From contig MHLM01000012.1 in the NCBI GenBank assembly GCA_001821395.1, positions 84,107 through 148,106 of the forward strand: a DNA stretch of 64,000 bases, read 5' to 3'. Made by a program: the position numbers and the translations under genes. This DNA is from Candidatus Lloydbacteria bacterium RIFCSPHIGHO2_02_FULL_50_18. GTDB lineage: Bacteria > Patescibacteriota > Minisyncoccia > Phycocordibacterales > UBA6899. Below the pieces are notes generated by a model that saw only the letters and a program-made list of their open reading frames with translations, was not told the DNA's origin and ran no database searches. Within the stretch, counting starts at the first letter, position 1. Each line of letters starts with the position of its first letter. This document shows, piece after piece, positions 138 through 59,711 of the stretch.

Positions 138-181
138 ATCCGCGTTTGTTTGTTCTTTAATTTACTTATGGAGGTGCCATC

Positions 182-961
182 ATGGCCCAAACTCTCGGTT
201 CTCTCAATGCGAGTGTCCGCAAGGTCACTCTGCAGTTTTCAATGTCACATGGAAATCAGGTCCCCCGCTGGGTGACGTGGATCAAGCCCGAATGTTTCGC
301 TGAGCGTAGCCTGCGCAAGGCAGCCGCTGTTCCTGGAGAACAATTCTTGATCCCGGAAAACGATGCATCGGGTCGTGGTGTCAACGATGTCAGTTTGATT
401 TATGTCGTCGATGACCTTATTGCTGCCGGTTTCACGCTTGTTGAGGCGATCGCTCAGGAGCGTTCTTCCAACAAGGCCGGTGCCCCGGCTTATGCGATGG
501 TGCGGTATTCATTCTATCGGAATGAACTTGCCAAACATTCATCGGACTTCCTACAAAATATGGCGAACATTGTTCGTGATCTTCAAGAATTCCTCGAACT
601 CGCTCTGTGGCGCGTGCGGGGCTTCAGAAATCTGTATTTTCAGGAAGATGGCACAGTGATGGACGGTGCGTATGGCATCTCCGTCAATATGGAGGCGCGA
701 AACCCGCTCTTTGTCGGAAATGACATGACAAAGCCGCAGGTTCGCTGGCAAAAAGATGCTAACGGCGATCGCGTGGGCGATGCCCCTCTTCCGGTCGTTC
801 CGGGGTCCTATGTCAGCGTCATCGACAACGAGGTCAGTCTCTGCGTCGAGCAATCAGCCGAGGTTTCCGACGCTGAGATGCTCGATAGTCAGGGTCGCAC
901 ATGGTCGCAGGTGCTGCGCGAAGAAGATCAAGTGCGTGAAGCATTGTTTGCACAATCGTAA
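182..961 (+). CDS. hypothetical protein (259 aa)
   Basis: Long ORF with GGAGGT RBS. A hairpin plus T-run terminator follows immediately. No family motif recognised. Confidence 0.55.
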   Translation: MAQTLGSLNASVRKVTLQFSMSHGNQVPRWVTWIKPECFAERSLRKAAAVPGEQFLIPENDASGRGVNDVSLIYVVDDLIAAGFTLVEAIAQERSSNKAGAPAYAMVRYSFYRNELAKHSSDFLQNMANIVRDLQEFLELALWRVRGFRNLYFQEDGTVMDGAYGISVNMEARNPLFVGNDMTKPQVRWQKDANGDRVGDAPLPVVPGSYVSVIDNEVSLCVEQSAEVSDAEMLDSQGRTWSQVLREEDQVREALFAQS

Positions 962-974
962 TTTACGTTACACA

Positions 975-1002
975 CACGCCTCCTTCGGGAGGCGTTTTTC
1001 TT
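975..1002 (+). terminator. rho-independent terminator
   Basis: gcctcc-ttcg-ggaggc stem followed by TTTTT. Confidence 0.6.
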
Positions 1003-1037
1003 TAACCGAACGATTCCTATTGTTTTAGGTTTTTGCA

Positions 1038-1066
1038 ACAAAAAACATCCGTGAGGATGTTTTTCT
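1038..1066. terminator. bidirectional hairpin terminator (serves rpmB on minus strand)
   Basis: acatcc-gtga-ggatgt stem flanked by an A-run on the 5' side and a T-run on the 3' side. Confidence 0.5.
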
Positions 1067-1074
1067 ACTTTTGT

Positions 1075-1305
1075 CTACTTGGCCTTTAATTCAAGATGTT
1101 TGCTTGCCTTCATGCAGCGCGTGCAGATCTTGATGCGTCCCCCTGAAAGTCCAGATGCGGTCTTCGCGAGCGCGACCCATTGCAGATTCGGATATTTACG
1201 GCGGTCACCGCTTGGGTTGAACTTGGTCGCACGGATACGGTTCGAATAGCCCCCTGCCATTTTGGAGCCCTTGTCGCAAAGTTTACATACATTTGATGAT
1301 GCCAT
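1075..1305 (-). CDS. rpmB: 50S ribosomal protein L28
   Basis: Translation MASSNVCKLCDKGSKMAGGYSNRIRATKFNPSGDRRKYPNLQWV matches the L28 core (NKTKRRFLPNLQ-like). GGAGGG RBS precedes the ATG at 1305. The ORF-track start at 1368 is an upstream extension. Confidence 0.7.
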   Translation of the reverse strand: MASSNVCKLCDKGSKMAGGYSNRIRATKFNPSGDRRKYPNLQWVALAKTASGLSGGRIKICTRCMKASKHLELKAK

Positions 1306-1381
1306 ATGGTTTTTCCCTCCCCGCACATTACTTTCGTGCTTAGAGTTTGGTGACCGCCATGCTATCATGGGAGCTAATCAC

Positions 1382-2002
1382 ATGCAAGACGTCGACCTCA
1401 TCCAGACTATTTTTTCTATAGCGATCCTTATTTTTTCCGTCGTTGCGCACGAAGTGTCTCACGGCTATATGGCTCAATACCTCGGAGATCCAACCGCACG
1501 GCTGGCGGGTCGACTAACCATGAACCCACTGCGGCATATCGACCCGATAGGGTCAATCTTGGTTCCGCTCATCACACTCTTGATTCCACCCCATTTCGTT
1601 TTTGGATGGGCGAAGCCGGTACCCTATAATCCATACAATCTCCGTGATCAAAAATGGGGGGATTCCAAGGTCGCACTCGCCGGGCCGCTCACGAACCTCG
1701 CTATCGCCTTTATTTTTGGACTGTTTATCCGCTTCGGAGGCGACCTCTTTTCCGGATCAATGATAACCATCATGCATCTTATTGTGTATATCAATATCCT
1801 TCTCGCGGTGTTCAATCTCGTTCCGATCCCGCCGTTTGATGGTTCAAAAGTGGTCTTGAATGCACTACCACTGCGCCGGCGCTATATCGGCGACTACTTA
1901 CAGCGCTATTCGCTCCTACTGCTCGTCATTTTTGCATTTTTCCTTTGGGGGCCATTTTTGCAGCTTATTGATCTGATTTACTCACTATTCGTCGGTCTTT
2001 GA
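1382..2002 (+). CDS. peptidase M50 / site-2-protease-like membrane zinc metalloprotease
   Basis: HEVSHG (HExxH) sits in a TM helix and a downstream NLVPIPPFDG motif is present, with multiple hydrophobic segments. Start chosen at the ATG at 1382, preceded by GGGAG. An alternative start is 1367. Confidence 0.7.
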   Translation: MQDVDLIQTIFSIAILIFSVVAHEVSHGYMAQYLGDPTARLAGRLTMNPLRHIDPIGSILVPLITLLIPPHFVFGWAKPVPYNPYNLRDQKWGDSKVALAGPLTNLAIAFIFGLFIRFGGDLFSGSMITIMHLIVYINILLAVFNLVPIPPFDGSKVVLNALPLRRRYIGDYLQRYSLLLLVIFAFFLWGPFLQLIDLIYSLFVGL

Positions 2003-2144
2003 TCGAATTCGGGCGCTTAAATGCTCGACCTCCTCACGAAAGGTTGCACTTTTCCACCTCTTATAGTAGATTACCGCTACCTAGCCGTACTCCATAAGCG
2101 CGTGCGATCAGGATCACAAATTTCATTTATCGAATATTTAAGTT

Positions 2145-2561
2145 ATGCCAACGATCAACCAACTCGTAAAAAGCAGCAGAAAGCAGGTCGCCCAAAAATC
2201 GAAGGCGATTGCGATGGGTCGCGGTTTCAACTCGATCCAGAATCGACCGATCTTTTACAATTCCCCGTTTAAGCGTGGTGTTTGTACGAAGGTGACGACC
2301 ATGACTCCCCGCAAGCCGAACTCCGCTATCCGAAAGATCGCACGTGTACGCCTCACGAATGGCATGGAGGTCACTGCCTACATCCCGGGAATCGGACACA
2401 AGCTCCAGGAGCACTCAGTGGTCATCGTGCGCGGCGGCCGCGTGAAGGACCTTGGTCTTCGCTATCATATCGTTCGCGGACGACTCGATGCTACCGGTGT
2501 GGACAAGCGCCAGCAGGGCCGCTCGTTGTACGGTGCAAAGCGTGCAGAGGTGAAGAAGTAG
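2145..2561 (+). CDS. rpsL: 30S ribosomal protein S12
   Basis: MPTINQLVK...PKKPNSALRK-like...GGRVKDLPGVRYH are canonical S12 motifs. Confidence 0.95.
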
Positions 2562-2645
2562 TAGTATTCAAGTCTTTACAGAAACTAATATCGCACTGGA
2601 GTACCGACGACTTGCGGGAAAGACCAGTCGAACAAATAAAACAAT

Positions 2646-3116
2646 ATGCGCGGACCAGTAAAGAATCGTAATATCCGAAAGCCGGATGCAAAGTATCATT
2701 CAGTAGAAGTTTCGACACTCATCAACTACGTGATGTGGGAAGGAAAAAAGACCATCGCAACGACGGTCGTTTATGATGCACTTGAGCTCATCAAAACTCA
2801 GCTAAAAGTAGAGGACCCTATCGAAGTCTACAAGGAAGCACTGCGCAACGCCGGACCGATCATGGAAATTCGTTCACGCCGCGTCGGTGGCGCCAATTAT
2901 CAGGTTCCCCGTGAGGTCCGACCCGAGCGCCGCATCTTCCTCGCGCTGCGCTGGATCATCGATGCCGCTCGCTCAAAGAAGGGAGCCGGAATGGCCAAGA
3001 AGCTTGCCGATGAGATCATCTCCGCTTCAAAGAACGAGGGTGAAGCTATCAAGAAACGTGAGAATGTGCACAAGATGGCGGAAGCGAACAAAGCCTTCGC
3101 GCACTTCGCCTGGTAA
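2646..3116 (+). CDS. rpsG: 30S ribosomal protein S7
   Basis: Full-length S7-like sequence (KKTIATTVVYDALELIK ... ENVHKMAEANKAFAHFAW). Confidence 0.95.
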   Translation: MRGPVKNRNIRKPDAKYHSVEVSTLINYVMWEGKKTIATTVVYDALELIKTQLKVEDPIEVYKEALRNAGPIMEIRSRRVGGANYQVPREVRPERRIFLALRWIIDAARSKKGAGMAKKLADEIISASKNEGEAIKKRENVHKMAEANKAFAHFAW

Positions 3117-3274
3117 AAATTTTGTAATTCTGGCGCCCTTCGCGCTTGACTTTGAACGCGAGTCCGACGAACGTACTATGAGGAGTACGTCCGCACGGAC
3201 ATCGCATTCTTGCCGCGCGCGAATTGCATCCAGAATAACAAAATTTTTCGTATCGGCTGCAAAATGCAGCAAAT

Positions 3275-3306
3275 AAAATTCCCTCGAAAGGGGAATTTTA
3301 ATTTTA
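3275..3306 (+). terminator. hairpin plus T-rich tract after rpsG
   Basis: aaattccc-tcgaaa-gggaattt followed by ttttaatttt. Confidence 0.4.
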
Positions 3307-3381
3307 CTAAATCGCGTTGCGGACGTAGTGTTTTATGTTATGGTGACGGAAGATCGTTCAAATTTAATGGAGGAGTGCGTT

Positions 3382-3969
3382 ATGTCCAAGAATTCTTGTG
3401 TCACCGTCATCTACCCGAAATCAATTCCAGTGAATAATGGAGCGGAGAATTGTTTTCTCCTTGGGCCCTGCACAAACGCGCCGCCATATCACGAGGATGT
3501 TATTGATATTTTTGCCCGACTCGCGAGAGAAGACAAAAAAATGATCTCCTTGCGCATCAATTGCCCGAAGCGAGAAGGGGAGATGGTCCGTGCGCTTGAT
3601 GTTGTTGCTCCTCCCGCAGAGATCCATCATACCTATGCCCGTCAGCGGGAATGGGAGTTCGAGACTCAGGAGAGTGCCGCATTTTCTGCCGGTCTCTTGT
3701 TCTGTTTCGTTAAGCAGGGGAATAATGCTGTTCCCGAGAAGGTCTACGGAGCGATCACCCAAGTGGAGTTTGGCTATTGGCTTGCGCGGGCATCGGTCGA
3801 TAGGCGCATACGCATCGCGTATTACTCTGATGGGATATACAACCACCAACTCCGCGTGCTCCTCCATGACATTGAGCGTCTTGCACCATGGCTTCTCCCG
3901 ATGCATACTTCGTTTGAGTCATTGTGTGCGCAGTCGCTCGCATGGGCCAAGCAAGGCCCCTCAAAATAG
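3382..3969 (+). CDS. hypothetical protein (196 aa)
   Basis: ATG at 3382 is preceded by GGAGGAG. A strong terminator follows. This ORF is preferred over the overlapping minus-strand ORF 3421..3906. Confidence 0.45.
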   Translation: MSKNSCVTVIYPKSIPVNNGAENCFLLGPCTNAPPYHEDVIDIFARLAREDKKMISLRINCPKREGEMVRALDVVAPPAEIHHTYARQREWEFETQESAAFSAGLLFCFVKQGNNAVPEKVYGAITQVEFGYWLARASVDRRIRIAYYSDGIYNHQLRVLLHDIERLAPWLLPMHTSFESLCAQSLAWAKQGPSK

Positions 3970-3987
3970 TCCATCAAGCAAGCAATA

Positions 3988-4012
3988 CGAACCGATCCTC
4001 GGTTCGTTTTTC
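3988..4012 (+). terminator. rho-independent terminator
   Basis: gaaccga-tcct-cggttc stem plus TTTTT. Confidence 0.6.
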
Positions 4013-4052
4013 ATTGCAATTTGTGATTCTTAGCCATATTTTCCCGCTTTTT

Positions 4053-4073
4053 TGTCAAGGTTAAACCTTGACA
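4053..4073. promoter_or_regulatory. 21-bp palindrome TGTCAAGGTT-a-AACCTTGACA (candidate operator; contains TTGACA)
   Basis: Perfect 10-1-10 inverted repeat. The same motif recurs at 24929-24951. Confidence 0.4.
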
Positions 4074-4085
4074 TTGATATATAAA

Positions 4086-4117
4086 GAAAAAACCTCCGAT
4101 GAGTCGGAGGTATTTTT
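4086..4117. terminator. bidirectional terminator hairpin
   Basis: cctccga-tgag-tcggagg stem with an A-run upstream and a T-run downstream. The minus-strand gene ends at 4116. Confidence 0.55.
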
Positions 4118-4328
4118 ACGTTTGTTTGCTTGGAACTTTTTCTACTCGGTCGCGAGAGTAGTGCCCGTCAAGCCCGGGAATGTCCGTTGAAGTGCATACG
4201 TTGCTTCCATCACAGTGCCGGACAATGTAGATATTGCCGACCGTGAGCGGTAACGTACGCGATGTTTGCCCCGTTGGCTTCGAAAGCAATTTGACTCGGT
4301 CATTCGAGCGCAGTGTTTGATCAGACAT
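4116..4328 (-). CDS. hypothetical small protein (70 aa), translationally coupled to the upstream gene
   Basis: ATG at 4328 overlaps the stop of the 4321..4671 gene by 8 nt (ATGTCTGA). GGAGGA RBS. Terminator lies immediately downstream. Confidence 0.4.
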   Translation of the reverse strand: MSDQTLRSNDRVKLLSKPTGQTSRTLPLTVGNIYIVRHCDGSNVCTSTDIPGLDGHYSRDRVEKVPSKQT

Positions 4329-4671
4329 GAGCATCCTCCATAAATAGATCCGTTTCCGGGGTGATCCCAATACTTTTGATGATCTGCCCGTTGTCACTCC
4401 GTTCGTTCAGGGTGAAACATACCGTTGCAGTACTGTATCCCACGTGACACTTGCTCAGTTTTCCGAGTAATTTGCCTTGCGCGTAGGCGCTGACTGTTTT
4501 ACCGGTGAGCGTGCAAAGTGCAGTGAGATATTGGTCGTTGCGTGCATGGCCCAAGGCTACCGCACTTAGCTCTTTTGCCAACGGATGTCCCATTTTATTG
4601 AGTACATTGACGGCATTTCGGTATTGTTCCTCACGGTACTTGTGGAGTACGTAGGGAATGGGGAATTGCAT
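4321..4671 (-). CDS. hypothetical protein (116 aa)
   Basis: Clean ORF divergent from fusA. No confident family assignment. Confidence 0.45.
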   Translation of the reverse strand: MQFPIPYVLHKYREEQYRNAVNVLNKMGHPLAKELSAVALGHARNDQYLTALCTLTGKTVSAYAQGKLLGKLSKCHVGYSTATVCFTLNERSDNGQIIKSIGITPETDLFMEDAHV

Positions 4672-4869
4672 TTGCCTCTCCTTGTTTTGATTTTGAACTC
4701 CTGTGTAAAACTATACATAAGATATTGTTCTTGTAAAGATTCTTTGCAGGTTGCTCAAAAGGGGAGTTTTCTATATAGTAACGCCATTAAGTGCCCTTTG
4801 TGGCGTTTTTGTTTACGCGGCAGTTCGCGTTACGGGGAAGATCATTTATTCGTTTTTTATTCACTTTTT

Positions 4870-7017
<2,148 letters not shown>

Positions 7018-7088
7018 ATATATTTCTCGTAGATAAATAAAAGCGATCATTATTTAATGGTCGCTTTTATTTTTGCTATACTATATCC

Positions 7089-7640
7089 ATGTACGATGAT
7101 GAAGATGATGACGACGAAGACGAGGGTGAAATAGGGCTTGATGCAGAAACAGTGCGACGCGAAGAGGCCGAGGTCGTGCAGGGGAAAGCATCCCGTGCTT
7201 TTTATGATGACCTCGCAAAAAAAGAAGATGATCGTCACAATGCGATGCGTCTTGACATGCAACAGCGCGCACTTGCCGCGGGTGAACTCCGTCAAAAATT
7301 ACGCAATAAAGAAACCGAGCTGCACGCGCTCCAACTCAAGATCACTATTGAGGAAGACCGTATCGATTATGAAAAAAAGAAAGCGTACCGTCTTGGAGGA
7401 GGTGAATCTATCGCTACGGGAGATGGAGCAACACGATCTGTCCCGATCCCCATACTCTCAAAAGATGTTGACGCTAAGGATGCTGATCAAGAATTTTCGG
7501 TAGAACACGCTGAAATACACATCAAGCAATTGCAGAGTGAAAAATTGGAGCTTGAAAAGGTGTTGAGCGGAATGAAGGAGCATTTGAATGAAGAAGAGCG
7601 TGCGTTGTCACAACTTCAGCATCAACTCGTTCGCATGTAA
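7089..7640 (+). CDS. hypothetical acidic coiled-coil protein
   Basis: N-terminal poly-D/E tract (DDEDDDDEDEGE) followed by heptad-like E/K/L-rich sequence. Confidence 0.5.
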   Translation: MYDDEDDDDEDEGEIGLDAETVRREEAEVVQGKASRAFYDDLAKKEDDRHNAMRLDMQQRALAAGELRQKLRNKETELHALQLKITIEEDRIDYEKKKAYRLGGGESIATGDGATRSVPIPILSKDVDAKDADQEFSVEHAEIHIKQLQSEKLELEKVLSGMKEHLNEEERALSQLQHQLVRM

Positions 7641-7677
7641 TGGCGTTCTTCTTTTTGTTGCATGATATAATTTGGTC

Positions 7678-8937
7678 ATGCCCGAAGATGAAGCCAACCA
7701 ATCCTCAGCCGCATCCGGGAGTCTAGGCGGTCTTCCCGATAGTGTAGCTCCTTCGGCCAGCGTGGAACCAAAAATAATTTCATCACCAGCACCAATGGTC
7801 TCCTCTGTTGTGTTACCCGTGGCGAATCCTATCGATCCTGCGGCGACAGAGAGTTCCGCAAATAATGAGAAGCATCTGCTACTCATTGCGCATCTATTGA
7901 ATCAGGTTCGCATCAAAAAGTCTGAGATAGGTGCTGCTCGCGATAAGATGGGTCAATTGGGGCGCGAGAGCGCGCAATTGCAAACCGAAATGCACCATAT
8001 TGAGCAAGACGTGCGCCGTGTTGAGGGAGAGTTGTACCAGGTCAAGCTTGATGCCAATAAGCAAGAGAGCACGTCAAAAGGAGAGCAGGTTGGCATGAAC
8101 GATAAAGATACGGAACTGAAAAGGCGGAGCGATGGCATCGCGAGGCTCGAGCGAGATATCGATAAATTGAAGCAAGCGATCGCCGAGCGAGAGCAACGAA
8201 TAGCTGAGATAAAAACTGAAAATAGTTCACTTGCGAAATCAAAGGAGGACCTCAGGCGAAAGATCGAGCTCGAACTTGCAGGCATCAGGGTCAAGGCCGA
8301 AAAAGCACGCGAGAAGGAAACCGCGATACGGCGCATAAAACAAGATCATGAACGGAAAAAGATGGAGATCTTTCACAAGAAGAGTGCGCCTGTTGACCGC
8401 TTACACTCAGCTCTAGATAACCAGCGGGAGGTTTCCCGACTGGAGTCCGACCTGCGGCATATTGAGCAGGAACTGTCGCGCACAGAGGGCGAGCTCCGTC
8501 TTATCGAAACGAGTGAGCACCAAGAAGAGAATACATCAAGGGTGGATCAGGGTGAGATGCGCAATAGGGATATGGTGATCTATAAAACAGGAGATGAGGT
8601 TGTTAAGCTCGGCAGAGAGATAGGGCGGCTGAACGTTGAGATTGCCGAGAAGGAAAGTGAGATAGCAAAGCTGGGCGGTGAAGGTCAGGAGTTGAGAAAG
8701 GGAAGAGAGGAGTTACGGCGACGGTATGAACTCGAGCATTTTAGTGCAAACTCAGGATTTACGCTTGCGCATGAGAAAGAGCTTCAGCTCTCTCGTTTTA
8801 AGCAGGGATTTCTTTTGAAGGAGGATAAGATCAAAAAGAACGAACATGCGCAAATACAACTACGCCATGACCTCATCTCCCTTGAGCAAGATCTGGCAAC
8901 GGTTGAAGCAGAATTGCGTCATGCTAACAGTGCATAG
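7678..8937 (+). CDS. hypothetical long coiled-coil protein (419 aa)
   Basis: ATG at 7678; the ORF track began at a TTG at 7672. Repetitive E/R/K/L-rich segments. Confidence 0.5.
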   Translation: MPEDEANQSSAASGSLGGLPDSVAPSASVEPKIISSPAPMVSSVVLPVANPIDPAATESSANNEKHLLLIAHLLNQVRIKKSEIGAARDKMGQLGRESAQLQTEMHHIEQDVRRVEGELYQVKLDANKQESTSKGEQVGMNDKDTELKRRSDGIARLERDIDKLKQAIAEREQRIAEIKTENSSLAKSKEDLRRKIELELAGIRVKAEKAREKETAIRRIKQDHERKKMEIFHKKSAPVDRLHSALDNQREVSRLESDLRHIEQELSRTEGELRLIETSEHQEENTSRVDQGEMRNRDMVIYKTGDEVVKLGREIGRLNVEIAEKESEIAKLGGEGQELRKGREELRRRYELEHFSANSGFTLAHEKELQLSRFKQGFLLKEDKIKKNEHAQIQLRHDLISLEQDLATVEAELRHANSA

Positions 8938-9049
8938 CTCTTGATGTGTAACACACTCTGCCGTCACGGGAGACGAACTCTTGCGGGGAAATCTAAGGAC
9001 AACGTCAGGTGATGATATGGTTGTGCTTCGATAGTTTATTGTTCAGTAA

Positions 9050-9146
9050 AAGGTATTAAACCCCAGGGCAAGCCCTGGGCTCGCGATGGGCTCGCAAAGC
9101 CTCGCGCGAGTCTAGGGCTGTGCCGCAGGGTATTAAACCTTTTTTA
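9050..9146. other. GC-rich structured element flanked by 11-bp direct repeats GGTATTAAACC
   Basis: ccagggcaagccctgg hairpin and ctcgcgcgag palindrome lie between two GGTATTAAACC copies (9051-9061 and 9131-9141). Confidence 0.3.
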
Positions 9147-9189
9147 GCTCTCCTCGGCACCACGGAGAGTACTTCATTTTTTTATGTTC

Positions 9190-9237
9190 AGAATATTATC
9201 TTAACCTATGCTATAGCATAGGTTAAGATAATATTCT
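9190..9237. repeat. 48-bp perfect palindrome
   Basis: agaatattatcttaacctatgcta|tagcataggttaagataatattct is an exact inverted repeat with no spacer. It is flanked by direct repeats CACCACG(G)AGAGTACTTC at 9159-9179 and 9267-9287. Confidence 0.9.
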
Positions 9238-9388
9238 TGATGTAGATATACATGTGTACACTTTTTTAATCGCACCACGAGAGTACTTCCATTCTTCTAA
9301 GGTGGAGTACCACCAAGAAGAATTGGTCGCTCGATGAAATCGCTCTACATCGGCAATAAAAAAACGAACCCGAGGGTTCGTTTTGTCT

Positions 9389-10129
9389 TCATTCAGTGTG
9401 CTGGCGCATTTTTCGCGCTTCGGCAACAAGTCGCTCGAGCGTGTCCGTTGCGATATGGTTTACCATCTCCGATTCAGTCATTGTGGTCGTATCGATGAGT
9501 TGGATCTGCGGATATTTCGGCGAAAGTTCTTCATGCATCGTCCGATAGCGGTCCACGAGTTTGCGGATCGACGCGGGGTTCGATGTCTCACCGAGCTTGT
9601 CCGAGAGTGCGATACGTTGTCCGCGGCGCATTGCTTCTTCAGGTTCACATACCACGACATAGGAGGCGATGATACGGTCTACCCAAAAACGCAGCAGGAA
9701 GAATTGCTGGATGAGTTCACGCTCTTCACCGGAGAGCAGTCCCTTGTCTTGCCAGTACATCATCCACGCGTACGGGTCAAAGATCGAACGATCAAAGATC
9801 ACCACATCGTAAGCATGACCATGTGTGTAGTCGATGACCATCTCGAGCGCATAGAGTGCGGTGCGGATGTTGTATTCCGGAGTCGTACGCGGAATATGTC
9901 CGATTACTTCGGCGCCTTCTTGCGGAATGTGCACGCGCAATCCTCTGCGTTTCAAGAATTTATAAAGTTCCTTGATGCAGGTCGTTTTTCCCGAATCCGG
10001 AGAACCGGTGAATTCGATAAGGAATGGGCGTGGCAAGAATGTACCTCCGTAACGCACGTCCGTTCGCAGGTATCCGTGCAGCATGTCCGCCATGAGTTCG
10101 AGGCGGGCAATGTCGATGGTTTTTGACAT
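9389..10129 (-). CDS. deoxynucleoside-kinase-like P-loop kinase
   Basis: Walker A FTGSPDSGKTT and an ERS-like IFDRSIFD motif. The plus-strand ORF 9383..10126 is its shadow. Confidence 0.6.
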   Translation of the reverse strand: MSKTIDIARLELMADMLHGYLRTDVRYGGTFLPRPFLIEFTGSPDSGKTTCIKELYKFLKRRGLRVHIPQEGAEVIGHIPRTTPEYNIRTALYALEMVIDYTHGHAYDVVIFDRSIFDPYAWMMYWQDKGLLSGEERELIQQFFLLRFWVDRIIASYVVVCEPEEAMRRGQRIALSDKLGETSNPASIRKLVDRYRTMHEELSPKYPQIQLIDTTTMTESEMVNHIATDTLERLVAEARKMRQHTE

Positions 10130-10182
10130 GAAATACTCTCTTTCTTTTGAAAAAGTACCAAGCTGTGTTTTACTATACCTGA

Positions 10183-10776
10183 ATGATGCTCAAAAATAAT
10201 ACTATACAAACAGGGCCCCGTATTGTGGGCTTTGACATGGATGGGGTGATCATCAACCATGCTCCGAATAAGATCATGCTTGCAAAGCGTTATGCCGTAA
10301 CACTGCGTCCCGAGGAGACGCACTCGGAACTCCTGCCCGGCAAATTCCCCCGCGAGGAGTATCTTGCCTTCCAGAATATGCTTTATGGTAATTCGGATTT
10401 TGCGCTTTCGGCACCGCTCATGCTCGGTGCATTCGATGTTTTGCACGAGATGAAAGATCGTGGCATCCCCTTCGTGCTGATATCCCGCCGCAGGGAACCC
10501 GAAAATGCCATCAGACTTCTTAAGGAGCGCAAATTGTGGGGCGACTTTTTTACCGAAGCAAATGCTTTTTTTGTCGGCACACCGGAAGAAAAGAATGTCG
10601 CAAGCGTACGAGAGGGCGTCACTCATTTCTTTGATGATGAGCGTAAGGTGTTGCGCGCCATACCGGACGTGAAAAGGAGATTTCTCTTTGATTCACTTCG
10701 CCAATTCAATGATGAAGATGAGTTTGAGCGTGTATTTGATTGGAAAATGCTCCGTCAGATCGTTTTTGAGGAATAG
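10183..10776 (+). CDS. HAD-superfamily hydrolase, 5'(3')-deoxyribonucleotidase-like
   Basis: N-terminal motif I VGFDMDGVII, which is DxDG(V/T). Confidence 0.6.
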   Translation: MMLKNNTIQTGPRIVGFDMDGVIINHAPNKIMLAKRYAVTLRPEETHSELLPGKFPREEYLAFQNMLYGNSDFALSAPLMLGAFDVLHEMKDRGIPFVLISRRREPENAIRLLKERKLWGDFFTEANAFFVGTPEEKNVASVREGVTHFFDDERKVLRAIPDVKRRFLFDSLRQFNDEDEFERVFDWKMLRQIVFEE

Positions 10777-10850
10777 GACAAAACGCGGAAGGTGCATAAG
10801 TCGCTTTGAAGGCTGCGGGGGTCTGATACGATGAAGATGAGGAACCTCTT

Positions 10851-11438
10851 ATGACCATTATGCACGAAGAAGGAATAGTCCTTGGGTTTGATCTCGACGG
10901 GGTCATCATCGACCACACGCAAAATAAAATGCTGATCGCTTCGCGCTACGGTATTGAATTAAGTCCAAAAGATACTCACGCCGAGCACATGGGTACGCAT
11001 TTTACTCCTGAACTCTATCGCGTGATCAAATCCCAGCTTTATGATTCAACTGCGCTCGCGCTCGAGGCTCCTTTGATGGCGGGAGCTTTCGCGACATTGG
11101 CAAAACTCCGCGAACAAGGGATCCCATATTTCCTCGTTTCGCTTCAGAAGAATCCCATGCATGCTGCGCATTTGCTCGAAGAGCGGGGTTTGTGGGGTAC
11201 GTACTTCACTCCCGAGAATACGTTATTCGCACGGAATGCTGATGAAAAGCATGCACTCGCGGCGCAGATCGGTGTCACCCACTTCATTGATGATGAACCA
11301 AATATCCTCGACGTGATGATCTCGATCCCGAACCGTATATTATTTGATGCGCGCGGACTGTTTCCCGAAAAAACTGACTATTGCCATGTAGAGAGCTGGA
11401 GTGAGCTTGCTGAAACACTGGGAATGGCGAATCGTTAG
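10851..11438 (+). CDS. HAD-superfamily hydrolase, tandem paralog of 10183..10776
   Basis: LGFDLDGVIIDH. Collinear similarity to the upstream gene across its full length. Confidence 0.6.
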   Translation: MTIMHEEGIVLGFDLDGVIIDHTQNKMLIASRYGIELSPKDTHAEHMGTHFTPELYRVIKSQLYDSTALALEAPLMAGAFATLAKLREQGIPYFLVSLQKNPMHAAHLLEERGLWGTYFTPENTLFARNADEKHALAAQIGVTHFIDDEPNILDVMISIPNRILFDARGLFPEKTDYCHVESWSELAETLGMANR

Positions 11439-11548
11439 CCTCGTACCAGTATCTCAGGTTCATTTTTGCGCTTTGTGGATTTTATGTTATGTTTTTTCAT
11501 ACGCTGTGAATACCGCGCGTAAGTTCTTTTGAATAAAGGAGTTCGAGT

Positions 11549-11860
11549 ATGACTGAGGCATTGCCTTCTTGTCGGGACATGCTGTGTGACGCGTTTGTCC
11601 GTGAATTTGATGAATTGCCGACAGATTCGATCTGGCTGGTAAGCAAGATAGGTTCCGAATTCGCGCTGTCCTCCGCGACGTCGATCGCTTTTAAGGAGTG
11701 GCTTCGACAACATCAGGGATTTTTCAGTAAATTTCCCCGCAGATATTGTGACTGGAAACGGAGCGATGTGCTGCGGTCGTCAAAGATCATCTCCGCTTAC
11801 CGATCGACTTTTTACGTATACATCCTGCCCGATGAGCTAAAGACTTTTCCGGAGTCATGA
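11549..11860 (+). CDS. hypothetical protein (103 aa)
   Basis: AAGGAG RBS 8 nt before the ATG. A terminator follows. Confidence 0.5.
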   Translation: MTEALPSCRDMLCDAFVREFDELPTDSIWLVSKIGSEFALSSATSIAFKEWLRQHQGFFSKFPRRYCDWKRSDVLRSSKIISAYRSTFYVYILPDELKTFPES

Positions 11861-11890
11861 GCATTCCCCGTACCTTTTTGTGTTTCAACA

Positions 11891-11913
11891 CCGAGCATTG
11901 CTCGGTTTTTTAT
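11891..11913 (+). terminator. rho-independent terminator
   Basis: ccgagc-att-gctcgg plus TTTTTT. This invalidates the ORF-track start at 11880. Confidence 0.55.
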
Positions 11914-11924
11914 TTTCACACACG

Positions 11925-12446
11925 ATGACGTACAATAGCACTATGGATATCATTTCACATGGTCTCTATGGCGGTGTGCTTGTCGGCAGAAGGAGCCGTA
12001 AAAGTTTTTGGACTTCGTGTTTTTTTGGTATCGCTCCGGATTTGTTCTCTTTTGGCATTTTTACCGCGAGTATTTGGCTGCAGCTTGCTTCCGGTCCGGA
12101 CTGGTCTTCGGATCACCCTGACGTTTCGCAGATACCCGATTATGTGAATTTGCTCTATGGTATTACCCATAGCCTTGTTATTTTTGCGCTCGTATTCCTC
12201 ATTGTTTGGTTTATAAAAAAGAAACCCGTCTGGGAAATGCTGGCGTGGGGTTTTCACGTTGTACTGGACATTTTCACCCACAATCTCCATTTTTTCCCGA
12301 CACCATTCCTCTGGCCAATATCAGGGTACTATTTTAATGGACATAGCTGGGGTACGTTGGAGGTATTCATCCCGAATCTTACCGTACTTGCCATTCTTTA
12401 TGGCTGGTGGTGGTTTCAAAAAAGGAAGAAACGGGCTACCTCTTAG
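11925..12446 (+). CDS. integral membrane protein (possible membrane-bound metal-dependent hydrolase type)
   Basis: Four or five hydrophobic helices with conserved His residues (ISHGLYGG, HSLVIF, HVVLDIFTHNLH). Start at the ATG at 11925 or 11943. Confidence 0.4.
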   Translation: MTYNSTMDIISHGLYGGVLVGRRSRKSFWTSCFFGIAPDLFSFGIFTASIWLQLASGPDWSSDHPDVSQIPDYVNLLYGITHSLVIFALVFLIVWFIKKKPVWEMLAWGFHVVLDIFTHNLHFFPTPFLWPISGYYFNGHSWGTLEVFIPNLTVLAILYGWWWFQKRKKRATS

Positions 12447-12548
12447 CATATCGCGGGACGGCGCCTCACTTTTCATGCGCAGTTCTCTCTCGATATGAAC
12501 TTCGGATAATTGGGTGCCCCATCATTTAATATCCGCTTAACGTACAAA

Positions 12549-12569
12549 TGTGGAAAAAGCTGTGGATAA
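12549..12569. promoter_or_regulatory. DnaA-box-like 9-mers (TGTGGAAAA, TGTGGATAA) upstream of tuf
   Basis: Perfect reverse-complement DnaA box TGTGGATAA at 12561-12569. Confidence 0.3.
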
Positions 12570-12829
12570 GCAGTGAATAAGGCGGATCGCTAAGAGAGAT
12601 TGACTCTCAGCCCACATCTGGTATCCTGTGCAGACGTTGCTTCATGTGAGTTTTTAGGTTTGAGCCATTCAGTCGAAAGTATGGCTTAAAACAAGGAGGA
12701 AAACGAGCAGTGCACGTGGAATAAAGTTATACGACCATCTCGTATAACCTCTTGTTTTTACAGTATTGGTCATTTCGGTATTATCCGATGTTTCCAACGC
12801 TGAATTATTTAACTAATCAAAAAAGCTTT

Positions 12830-14680: not shown

Positions 14681-15304
14681 ATGAAATTCCTATTAGCAAC
14701 AAAACAAGAGATGACGCAATACTTCTCGGAAGACGGGAAGTGTATCGCTGCGACGCTTCTTTCCGCGGGCCCAATCACGGTGACCGAGGTGCGTACGAAA
14801 GAGCGCGACGGCTACGAAGCCGTTCAGTTCGGTTTTGGGACGCAGCTTCCAAAACGCGTCAACAAGCCACAGCTCGGCGCCCTCAAGGAGCTCGGTGTAT
14901 TCCGCTTCATGCGTGAATTCCGCCCTAAAACGGGTGGCACTGAGTCATTGAAAGCAGGCGACAAGATCACCGTTGAAGCATTTACTCCCGGAGACGACAT
15001 CGAGGTTTCGGGTATCTCAAAGGGTAAAGGTTTCCAGGGTGTCGTGAAGCGCCACGGTTTCCATGGCGGACCTCGTTCACACGGTCAGAAGCATTCTGAG
15101 CGTGAGCCGGGATCCATCGGTGCGACCGGACCTCAGCGCGTGGTACCGGGTACCCGCATGGCAGGCCGTATGGGCTCGGATCGTGTGACCATCAAGGGTC
15201 TCAAGGTTCTTGCCATTGATCCGACAAACAATCTTCTTCTCGTGTCGGGAGCGATCCCGGGTCGTCGCGGGACATTGATCGAAATTAAGGCAGCTCTTTC
15301 ATAG
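14681..15304 (+). CDS. rplC: 50S ribosomal protein L3
   Basis: Full-length L3-like sequence (KGKGFQGVVKRHGFHGGPRSHGQ). Confidence 0.93.
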   Translation: MKFLLATKQEMTQYFSEDGKCIAATLLSAGPITVTEVRTKERDGYEAVQFGFGTQLPKRVNKPQLGALKELGVFRFMREFRPKTGGTESLKAGDKITVEAFTPGDDIEVSGISKGKGFQGVVKRHGFHGGPRSHGQKHSEREPGSIGATGPQRVVPGTRMAGRMGSDRVTIKGLKVLAIDPTNNLLLVSGAIPGRRGTLIEIKAALS

Positions 15305-17424: not shown

Positions 17425-17462
17425 ATCGAAAATATTTACTTCTTTCTAAGATTGAAGGAAAA

Positions 17463-17492
17463 CAAAACCGCTTACTAAGCGGTTTTGTTGTA
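17463..17492 (+). terminator. rho-independent terminator
   Basis: aaccgctta-ct-aagcggtt plus TTTGTTG. Confidence 0.6.
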
Positions 17493-21090: not shown

Positions 21091-21918
21091 CAGAGCTCCC
21101 CTATTTCTTTCCTCCCTTCTTCGGCTTCTTTGCCTCCTTCTTGATGTTGTTGTCTCCGCGTCCCATGTTGTATGCGTCTATTGATAATATTGCACAATTA
21201 TATCATGACACAGCAAAACACCACCGCACATTTGTGCGGTGGTGTTTTGCTTGTTGTTATTTCACTACGACCTTCTTTGGCTTTTTCTTATTTTTCTGCT
21301 GTGCATTGTTTCCTTTTGCCATGACGTATTGCTTATACTGCTAATGAACGAACGTATCTTCAGTGTAGCAGATTTTCGTCATGACATGAAAATGCCCGGT
21401 TGTACCCATGTTGATAGTGGTCATACGGACCGACCCATGCTTATTTGCAAAAACAGGGGATAACTTTCACTACGGAAGGCGCTTTGAGGCTATAATGGTG
21501 ACAACATTTTCGCACATTACGCGCTGGGTGCTTTTGGAGTAAAAAGCGAGCAGGACGTAGTGTGAGAAGATCCACAAAATGGATCCTTATGCTATGTTCC
21601 AGCGAATGGACATATCGTTGCGGAGAAACAAAAACTTCGTTAACGGTAGAGGTTAGTCGTATATCTTTCTTATCAACATCGTGGATACGCGTTCGTTGCC
21701 TACAGCAAGGAATGTGAAAAGTGATGAAGAGAAGTACTCTGGAGCCAATTTTTATGAATCCGTTGTCGAGTGCTAAAAAGCAAAAGTAACGATCGCCAAT
21801 CGTCCTCCCGCATAAAAAAGTATCTGTAGTACTTTTTATGCCAGAGTGCATGCTCATCGAAAGATATCAACGAATTGTCATAGCGCCGCGTTCAGGCAAG
21901 AACGCGGCGTTATGTATT

Positions 21919-22041
21919 GAGGATTGAGAACATAGCAAATTTCTTTGTTGAAACATGAACATGCAAGCAAGCCGTACTCCGAGTACGGCTTGCTTGCATG
22001 TTCATGTTTCGTCTCGAACTTTGCATATGTTCTCAATCCTA
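21919..22041. repeat. about 123-bp nested imperfect palindrome with a near-perfect 59-bp core at 21951-22009
   Basis: aaacatgaacatgcaagcaagccgtactc-c-gagtacggcttgcttgcatgttcatgttt is flanked by the outer inverted repeat aggattgagaacata / tatgttctcaatcct. Confidence 0.7.
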
Positions 22042-22125: not shown

Positions 22126-22812
22126 ATGGTTCAAGCATCAGTCAACAAAGAGCAACTAGATAAGCTTCGAAATACTTATTGCGATGCAGCGCAGTACTTG
22201 GGTGTCCCACGCACAAGTGCAGAACGATGTTTCACGAAACTCGCGCAATACTATGCTGAACCGCATCGGCGCTATCATACGCTGGCTCATCTGCACCAGT
22301 GCATGGTTGAGTTTGCGGATGTAGTGTGGCACAGTCAGGATCCTGCGCTCATTGTCATGGCTATTTTTTACCATGATATTACGTACGACGTTCATCGCAA
22401 CGATAACGAAGCGAAGAGTGCGTTGTATTGGAAATTCATTGCCCGCCATGTACTCGAAGTGAAGAACGAAGGATTCATCGCCGAGGTCGCCCGATTGATC
22501 GAACTTAGCGGCGAACATCGTACGGACCCTGTCACTGATCCTGATGCCGCGCTCTTCCTCGACGTCGACATGTCGATTCTAGGAGCTGACGCACCGGAGT
22601 ACGACGCATATGCGGCCGCAGTGCGACAGGAGTATGCGCACTGCAGTGACGATGAATGGGCGTTTGGTCGCGTTGCGAAGTTCCTTGATCCGACCTTGTG
22701 TGAGGACAGAATATTTCTCACTGATATCTTTCGTCAAAAATATGAAGAAAATGCGCGCGCAAACCTGATGGAAGAGCGTTGCCGCTATCAAAAAAACCTA
22801 CCGCTCGCATGA
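22126..22812 (+). CDS. HD-domain metal-dependent phosphohydrolase
   Basis: Ordered H...HD...D motifs: YHTLAHLHQ, IFYHDITYD, FLDVDMSILG. GAGGGAGG RBS precedes the ATG at 22126. Confidence 0.55.
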   Translation: MVQASVNKEQLDKLRNTYCDAAQYLGVPRTSAERCFTKLAQYYAEPHRRYHTLAHLHQCMVEFADVVWHSQDPALIVMAIFYHDITYDVHRNDNEAKSALYWKFIARHVLEVKNEGFIAEVARLIELSGEHRTDPVTDPDAALFLDVDMSILGADAPEYDAYAAAVRQEYAHCSDDEWAFGRVAKFLDPTLCEDRIFLTDIFRQKYEENARANLMEERCRYQKNLPLA

Positions 22813-29636: not shown

Positions 29637-29719
29637 GCTCCCAGGTTCGTTTTTCGAGCGGGGATCCGAAAAGACTTATTGTCTTCGCCCAAGAGGATCG
29701 GAGTTCGCGTTTGAAATAC

Positions 29720-29750
29720 AAAACCCGCTCATTTGAGCGGGTTTTGTTCT
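29720..29750 (+). terminator. rho-independent terminator
   Basis: cccgctc-atttg-agcggg plus TTTTGTT. Confidence 0.6.
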
Positions 29751-59651: not shown

Positions 59652-59711
59652 TCGCAGCTGATCAAATAAAAACCGCTCTAATGATAGAGCGGTTTTTGTC
59701 TGAGCTGCTGT

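Follow-up and report, generated by a model that had tools for sequence, protein, structure and literature searches.

The closest described counterpart of the sites reported here is the operator of PaaX, the repressor of the phenylacetate catabolon in Escherichia coli and Pseudomonas, which combines a winged helix with a Cas2-like domain. The PaaX box is ~15 bp. Our family resembles this system in that its protein matches the Pfam PaaX_M domain, has E. coli PaaX (8a39) as its best structural match and is predicted to combine the same two domains, and in that its sites are palindromic and overlap the apparent promoter of the regulated gene, as is the case for a repressor. However, the family protein is only ~190 aa and lacks the PaaX C-terminal domain, no phenylacetate pathway genes adjoin it, and its sites are 38–50 bp long with a GCTATAGC centre and bracket the regulator's own gene. 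Moreover, what is very probably another copy, a palindrome at 9190–9237 of the window (the whole 64-kb stretch of DNA analysed here), has no regulator gene nearby. A second comparison is with repressors that use auxiliary operators and looping (LacI, GalR and DeoR type): the family, too, has 2–3 copies of one palindromic site, 0.13–0.9 kb apart, with one at the promoter and one downstream of the gene. Here the differences are that the family sites are much longer, that looping would be our reading of the layout, and that the lone window site cannot loop.

Two further systems share the form of the site. Integron attC sites and pdif modules are imperfect or perfect palindromes with conserved AAC…GTT around a variable part, and they delimit single genes, as the family sites do in L056, one of the loci described below. 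In contrast to these, the family sites are shorter, have no extrahelical bases and come with neither an integrase nor an Xer gene; what they bracket is in each case a gene of one family, syntenic and not mobile, and the upstream copies carry a promoter. We rejected the window site as an attC site because TCTTAAC/GTTAAGA fail the outer R/Y positions of RYYYAAC…GTTRRRY, and because the site is 48 bp rather than 57–141 bp, has no bulges and is single, with no integrase from −19 to +5 kb. We similarly rejected a dif site, since cumulative GC skew shows a monotonic rise over the window and does not switch near 9.2 kb, and since the palindrome is fully symmetric whereas dif has a 28-bp 11-6-11 architecture with an asymmetric core. 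Protelomerase targets (N15 telRL, PY54, phiKO2) are likewise spacer-less perfect palindromes of ~40–56 bp, but the window site is chromosomal, between fusA and tuf, and its family is tied to a PaaX-like gene. This candidate was also rejected, as there is no protelomerase gene among the neighbours (fusA, coiled-coil genes, AAA_28, NT5C genes and tuf) and the palindrome core is absent from viral contigs.

A 48-bp perfect palindrome between convergent genes

The sequence at 9190–9237 is an exact 24+24 palindrome of 48 bp without a spacer (AGAATATTATCTTAACCTATGCTA followed directly by TAGCATAGGTTAAGATAATATTCT), just as a first-pass annotation of this DNA had described it. Its 22-bp core, AACCTATGCTATAGCATAGGTT (9203–9224), has identical copies in two other loci, L056 and L057, and the octamer GCTATAGC at its dyad centre (9210–9217) occurs nowhere else in the window. 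By arithmetic, ~2e-10 palindromes with 24-nt arms are expected by chance in 64 kb, and in 100 dinucleotide shuffles of the window the 24-mer arm had 0 copies even at 3 mismatches. No further copy of the palindrome half was found within the window.

The possibility of a foldback assembly artefact, raised in the first-pass annotation, is refuted by comparison of assemblies. The AAA_28 gene beside the palindrome is present on 19 contigs, and the palindrome is exact in six independent assemblies derived from different samples and assemblers (ENA megahit, JGI, ANAN16 scaffolds), four of which carry the whole 451-bp gap exactly. The AAA_28 protein is 100% identical to one from Candidatus Lloydbacteria RIFCSPHIGHO2_01_FULL, a member of the Patescibacteria (CPR) from Rifle groundwater. 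The genes that flank the palindrome are different from one another, unique and syntenic, with no mirror images, and this, together with the identical sequence across assemblies, excludes a foldback. Three short contigs (L006, L008 and L009) end inside the palindrome, at its centre or 6 nt past it, which could be read as the sign of an artefact. However, two Logan contigs reach 30 nt into the palindrome before they stop, a distance of k−1 for k=31 and the break expected because a de Bruijn unitig must end at a true palindrome. Across the short-k assemblies L006, L008 and L009, the breaks come at k−1, 24 or 30 nt into it. Contig ends k−1 into a palindrome thus offer a practical signature for recognising true palindromes, and the suspicion of an assembly artefact is lifted from this one.

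The palindrome lies in a gap of 451 bp (8938–9388) between convergent genes. The gap holds no credible ORF (none >35 aa except one that runs through a terminator), and tRNA and tmRNA scans and Rfam searches at gathering and E-value thresholds returned only generic hairpin-to-miRNA noise, in agreement with the earlier call of a non-coding interval. The left neighbour encodes a coiled-coil protein of 421 aa with no Pfam family (7672–8937, plus strand). The right neighbour had been called a kinase gene; it is present and convergent (9389–10129, minus strand) and conserved across Paceibacteria, and its product is better described as an AAA_28 or thymidylate-kinase-like P-loop protein.

Both neighbours are followed by terminator-like elements. 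A G+C-rich imperfect hairpin of 96 nt (9048–9143, plus strand), bounded by GGTATTAAACC repeats at 9052 and 9129 and followed by TTTTTT to about 9145, corresponds to the GC-rich element previously noticed at 9050–9146 and is the probable terminator of the coiled-coil gene. A bidirectional intrinsic terminator at 9361–9384, the only one reported by a terminator scan of the gap, has its stronger T-run on the minus strand and so terminates the AAA_28 gene. With a terminator on either side, one for each convergent gene, the palindrome probably does not act on the transcripts of these genes, and no annotated gene start adjoins it. We rejected the palindrome itself as an intrinsic terminator because it has 29% G+C and no T-run on either strand. 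A promoter scan found no site in the gap that scored 9 of 12 or more; weak promoter-like hexamers (TTAACC-N17-TAAGAT, 8/12, read by eye) occur symmetrically on both strands of the palindrome. The intergenic region as a whole folds strongly (z = −10 to −11). As a separate observation, the 96-nt hairpin with its 11-bp direct repeats GGTATTAAACC resembles a small insertion with a target duplication; neither the repeat nor the hairpin has another copy within the window, and in one scaffolded assembly, L007, the hairpin coincides exactly with a run of N (~1340–1380).

Two direct repeats, GCACCACGGAGAGTACTTC (9157–9175) and, with one indel, GCACCACGAGAGTACTTC (9272–9289), both on the plus strand, stand ~40–60 nt either side of the palindrome, and GGAGAG in the first is the 3′ arm of a small hairpin at 9147–9170. 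The repeats are real, although the coordinates first given for them (9159–9179 and 9267–9287) were a few bases off. They have no other copies within the window and are specific to this locus, not occurring around other family members; the earlier annotation treated them as part of the element, but they are no feature of the family. One speculation is that divergent transcripts from the palindrome would carry the repeats in complementary sense. A nested hairpin, CCATTCTTCT..GGTGGAGTACCACC..AGAAGAATTGG, previously placed at 9285–9324, was recovered by folding at 9289–9326 (plus strand).

Perfect palindromes of this size had been considered rare, but this one is not unique even within the window. 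A second, longer one at 21950–22010 (30+1+30; GAAACATGAACATGCAAGCAAGCCGTACTC-C-GAGTACGG…) forms the core of a ~120-nt imperfect hairpin (21920–22041, fold z = −15) in the gap upstream of an ORF with its start near 22127. The adjacent ORFs match no Pfam family, and the palindrome is unrelated in sequence to that at 9190 and lacks GCTATAGC. Other unrelated perfect palindromes, of 32–46 bp, are found in L015 (4608–4649), L016 (10090–10135), L041 (11122–11153 and 11368–11405), L043 (10070–10111) and L079 (9848–9886); several are spacer-less, and none looks like a terminator. It seems that Paceibacteria repeatedly tolerate, or use, long palindromes. Perfect AAAAC…GTTTT inverted repeats (19+2+19, 14+1+14 and similar) at 21212–21251, 17461–17489, 29718–29747 and 59668–59697 of the window look like bidirectional intrinsic terminators.

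The palindrome lies in a hypervariable interval between fusA and tuf

The gap and its neighbours belong to a ~5.7-kb insertion of non-ribosomal genes between fusA and tuf (7018–12751). An AAA_28-NT5C-NT5C block, with its two diverged NT5C-like paralogues, is kept in relatives (L010–L013, L017, L053). Between fusA and the AAA_28 3′ end, each relative examined has different content (coiled-coil genes, a gene for a lipoprotein-like protein, a NUDIX gene, other ORFs or next to nothing), which makes this stretch a hotspot of local gene turnover. With blastn, nothing matching the intergenic sequence turned up among 46 related loci, and the orthologous positions (L010–L013, L053, L074 and L075, with 64–77% protein identity) are taken up by other genes or short gaps. 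Therefore, neither positional conservation nor covariation at this locus could be used to evaluate the palindrome at 9190. We also noted that the longest fusA ORF (4585–7017) has 810 aa from its first ATG while public gene calls have 715 aa; the upstream 95 codons are probably untranslated.

A family of palindromic sites brackets short PaaX-like genes

The lead to a wider family came when metagenome contigs were scanned for the central 22-mer AACCTATGCTATAGCATAGGTT, with matches on two unrelated contigs. In L056 two copies are exact and a third is degenerate (4 mismatches); in L057 one copy is exact and the other carries 1 mismatch. The outer arms of these copies are unlike those in the window, yet they are symmetric, and one L056 copy is a 50-bp perfect palindrome. 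On both contigs the copies bracket a gene of ~190 aa that matches Pfam PaaX_M. With eight further independent loci (L058, L059, L061, L062, L064, L076, L077 and L079), the same layout of site, gene and site is found in 10/10 independent Paceibacteria loci. The centre of the upstream site is 17 nt before the ATG in 3 loci, 33–41 nt in 5 and 69 or 101 nt in 2, while the centre of the downstream site is 19–77 nt past the stop codon. A third copy is present in L061 and in L056; in L056 it is 0.9 kb from the PaaX-like gene, ahead of other genes. Just upstream of the PaaX-like gene, L056 also encodes type IV secretion components (160–6099; VirB4/TraG-like ATPase, PrgI and T4SS pilin).

The sites are 38–50 bp long, and dyad symmetry to at least ±16–19 bp is among the traits that define them. 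The GCTATAGC centre is common to eight lineages, while two have GC-rich centres, GACGGCCGTC and CACGGTCGTAGG. The arms are lineage-specific, and the upstream and downstream copies of each gene have matching arms. All 16 occurrences of GCTATAGC in the ten PaaX-like loci fall within the gene-flanking sites; all are within ~1 kb of the PaaX-like gene and 15 are within ~110 bp. In 484 kb of control Paceibacteria loci (L010–L055, L074 and L075), GCTATAGC occurs 0 times, compared to ~7 expected. This suggests that GCTATAGC is avoided genome-wide outside its functional sites.

We aligned 17 sites on the dyad, among them the window site. GCTATAGC is identical in all 17, as is an A:T at ±11 (alignment columns 14 and 35). 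Symmetry is complete in the window site (24/24 positions) and ranges from 16 to 24 of 24 in the other members. The window site does differ in some respects. Its outer arm, AGAATATTATC, departs from the family consensus ATACAC (as do the arms in L077, CACCACCAAAC, which are not of the (C)ATACAC/GTGTAT(G) type); it is the only exception among the 17 in having T/A rather than A/T at ±15; and it is a single site, not one of an upstream and downstream pair within ~110 bp of a PaaX_M gene. We nevertheless consider it very probable that the window palindrome is a member of the GCTATAGC-centred family. This family is defined here; literature searches (PaaX with Patescibacteria; Cas2-like plus winged helix plus palindrome; GCTATAGC) returned nothing relevant on such a system of gene and sites, and no description of the sites.

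The bracketed protein and its inheritance

The bracketed proteins match PaaX_M, the Cas2-like middle domain of PaaX, with E values of 1.6e-19 and 1.8e-18 for the L056 and L057 proteins, and the short PaaX-like family has >3,374 database matches in Patescibacteria. The fold was evaluated on family proteins of other genomes, none of them from the window. An AlphaFold2 model of one of these, P0121, has a mean pLDDT of 75, with the Cas2-like domain >90 and the N-terminus poorly predicted. With this model, Foldseek found E. coli PaaX (8a39) as the best match and 3kfw (Rv0674) as the third, followed by many Cas2 proteins; a profile search with a family protein also matches 3kfw. The helix-helix-helix-wing layout of the N-terminus is presumably that of PaaX. 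Thus, the ~190-aa protein is predicted to be a short PaaX-type winged helix joined to a Cas2-like domain, without the PaaX C-terminal domain. The Cas2-like domain retains the conserved FDI Asp and a QxSVW motif. We rejected the N-terminal hydrophobic stretch as a transmembrane helix, since its layout fits helices 1–2 of the PaaX winged helix (the model is of low confidence there).

The gene appears to stay in place while its sites change. CAP-SNase-PaaX-like is the gene order in both L057 and L076, and pilins-PaaX-like…PMM-glycosyltransferase that in both L061 and L077; the gene for P0240 adjoins SMC in all 10 places in which it was found. The upstream and downstream sites co-diverge in each lineage while the position of the PaaX-like gene remains syntenic, which points to vertical co-evolution of gene and sites. 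No target-site duplications or direct repeats were found around other bracketed family members, and a collection of viral contigs contained neither the palindrome nor the PaaX-like protein family. Fixed synteny, sites that diverge in place and the absence of duplications and of viral copies together argue against a cassette or transposon.

The window has no such gene. An HMM search of the 64 kb and of 9.8 kb further left (−19 to +55 kb from the palindrome) found no PaaX-like gene, and the six-frame translation of the gap, searched by HMM for traces of such a gene, yielded nothing but negative scores. A weak tblastn match at 14995–15258 was rejected as spurious, as it is antisense to rplC. With no PaaX-like gene nearby and a single site, the window palindrome is an orphan.

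Symmetry of the sites and overlap with promoters

In the alignment of sites, 83.8% of symmetric cells are complementary, compared to 65.7% in shuffles (0/500 shuffles were as high), and in 19/24 symmetric pairs both sides change. Double changes account for 78 cells, and single changes of the G-T type are scarce. When the partner is slid by 1–3 columns, pairing collapses to 22–46%. The upstream and downstream copies of one locus are not independent and inflate these covariation counts, but the pattern across lineages is still clear. Since wobble intermediates are lacking, the symmetry speaks for duplex DNA, as read by a multimeric protein or extruded as a cruciform, and against an RNA stem.

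The upstream sites are placed at or near apparent promoters. A −10-like hexamer is found exactly −12 to −7 from the ATG in five loci: TATAAT in L056, L058 and L079, TATGAT in L059 and TAGAGT in L062 (at L056 6336, L058 3073, L079 6001, L059 3001 and L062 3001). This position leaves no room for a Shine-Dalgarno sequence, and thus these PaaX-like genes look leaderless. With its centre 17–41 nt before the ATG in 8/10 loci, the upstream site either forms part of the core promoter or directly borders it, which in sequence terms is the classical position of a candidate autoregulatory operator.

Interpretation of the window site and its alternatives

Regulator binding, one of several functions suggested for the palindrome at first pass, is the best-supported reading, in that the family brackets a PaaX-like winged-helix gene and overlaps its promoter. 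We propose that the sites are double-stranded DNA recognition sites, read in the family as a pair around the PaaX-like gene. Autoregulation would be the simplest mechanism: the encoded protein, as a dimer or tetramer, would bind both sites, and the ~0.65 kb between them might then be looped. With respect to the window palindrome, we hold at about even confidence that a short PaaX-like regulator, encoded at another place in the genome, binds it in trans as an operator-type DNA site, possibly a solo one left in a hypervariable interval after the loss of the gene once bracketed. It may otherwise serve as the operator for short unannotated divergent transcripts, in line with the weak hexamers on both strands. 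The comparisons show family membership, association with the gene and DNA-type symmetry, from which we infer the identity of the binding protein and the consequence at 9190.

The sites might be recognised by a different DNA-binding factor, of which the PaaX-like gene is the most regular target and the window site another. Identity in the central 18–22 bp does not track the protein phylogeny: the L056 and L057 proteins are 38% identical yet have the same core AACCTATGCTATAGCATAGGTT, while relatives of the L057 protein at 68–70% carry GACGGCCGTC or CACGGTCGTAGG centres. This mismatch is odd for simple co-evolution of regulator and operator, and the orphan in the window and the third L056 site, which fronts other genes 0.9 kb away, would also be at home in such a regulon. 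We consider this reading unlikely, if one to be taken seriously, given how closely GCTATAGC sites keep to the PaaX-like gene, their absence from the 484 kb of other Paceibacteria DNA and the lineage-specific arms common to upstream and downstream copies, which are most simply explained if the product of the bracketed gene binds them.

A recombination or resolution site had also been proposed, and in a broader form the sites could be substrates of recombination, cassette boundaries like those of attC or pdif modules, or targets of hairpin or cruciform cleavage by the Cas2-like domain, with the window palindrome a solo junction left after excision. Genes are bracketed by the same site (three sites delimit two genes in L056), the orphan and downstream copies are perfect palindromes of 48–50 bp, the Cas2-like domain keeps the FDI Asp and the QxSVW motif, AAC/GTT flank the centre as in attC R boxes, by our reading of the sequence, and the interval is hypervariable among relatives. 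We regard this explanation as improbable, however, because the PaaX-like gene is inherited vertically at fixed syntenic positions with sites that diverge in place, there are no target-site duplications, and viral contigs hold no family member. Moreover, the sites have neither the extrahelical bases nor the length of attC, and the upstream copies are built into the core promoter. Gene calls from about −19 to +5 kb around the window site include no recombinase or integrase, and the earlier proposal is thus unsupported. It follows a similar line to suppose that the short winged-helix and Cas2-like proteins of Patescibacteria and the GCTATAGC palindromes constitute a DNA-processing system rather than a repressor-operator pair, which we judge to be rather a long shot. 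If this were true, the Cas2-like domain might, for instance, target cruciforms or hairpins extruded at the sites, or exchange or resolution between sites might allow the genes that they enclose to be gained and lost. The lone perfect 48-bp palindrome in its hypervariable interval would then be a scar of such an event, or its landing pad.

The palindrome could instead function as an RNA hairpin (22-bp stem, 4-nt loop), as a signal for processing, stability or termination or as the target of a Cas2-like RNase. Both strands fold strongly, as does the region around them, and the downstream copies are in the position of a 3′ UTR of the PaaX-like gene. But nearly all symmetric changes are double Watson-Crick changes with hardly any G-U intermediates, the upstream copies overlap leaderless −10 elements and so cannot be transcribed whole, and the window copy, A+T-rich and without a T-run, is located between the terminators of both convergent genes and has only generic hairpin matches in Rfam. 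An RNA role is accordingly doubtful.

A neutral origin, in which template switching or inverted duplication made the palindrome and a reduced genome, perhaps lacking palindrome-cleaving nucleases, tolerates it, would fit the unrelated long perfect palindromes at 21950–22010 and in L015, L016, L041 and L043 and an intergenic region without a counterpart in relatives; it is very unlikely in view of the same 22-bp core in two unrelated genomes, the site architecture in 10 loci and the absence of GCTATAGC from ~550 kb otherwise. A foldback or chimeric assembly has a negligible probability, as the 451-bp interval is identical across assemblies from different samples and assemblers.

Implications for gene regulation in Patescibacteria

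Patescibacteria (CPR) account for much of bacterial diversity, and almost nothing is known of their gene regulation. That a ~190-aa PaaX-like protein, and a very common one, should be encoded between paired copies of a long palindrome is a regularity at the level of a family, and provides a concrete, testable pair of cis-element and trans-factor for organisms without genetics. It also comes with a rule for finding targets, namely GCTATAGC inside a 40-bp dyad. The window site stands out as an orphan in a fast-changing interval, and the apparent leaderless promoters of the PaaX-like genes are a further lead.
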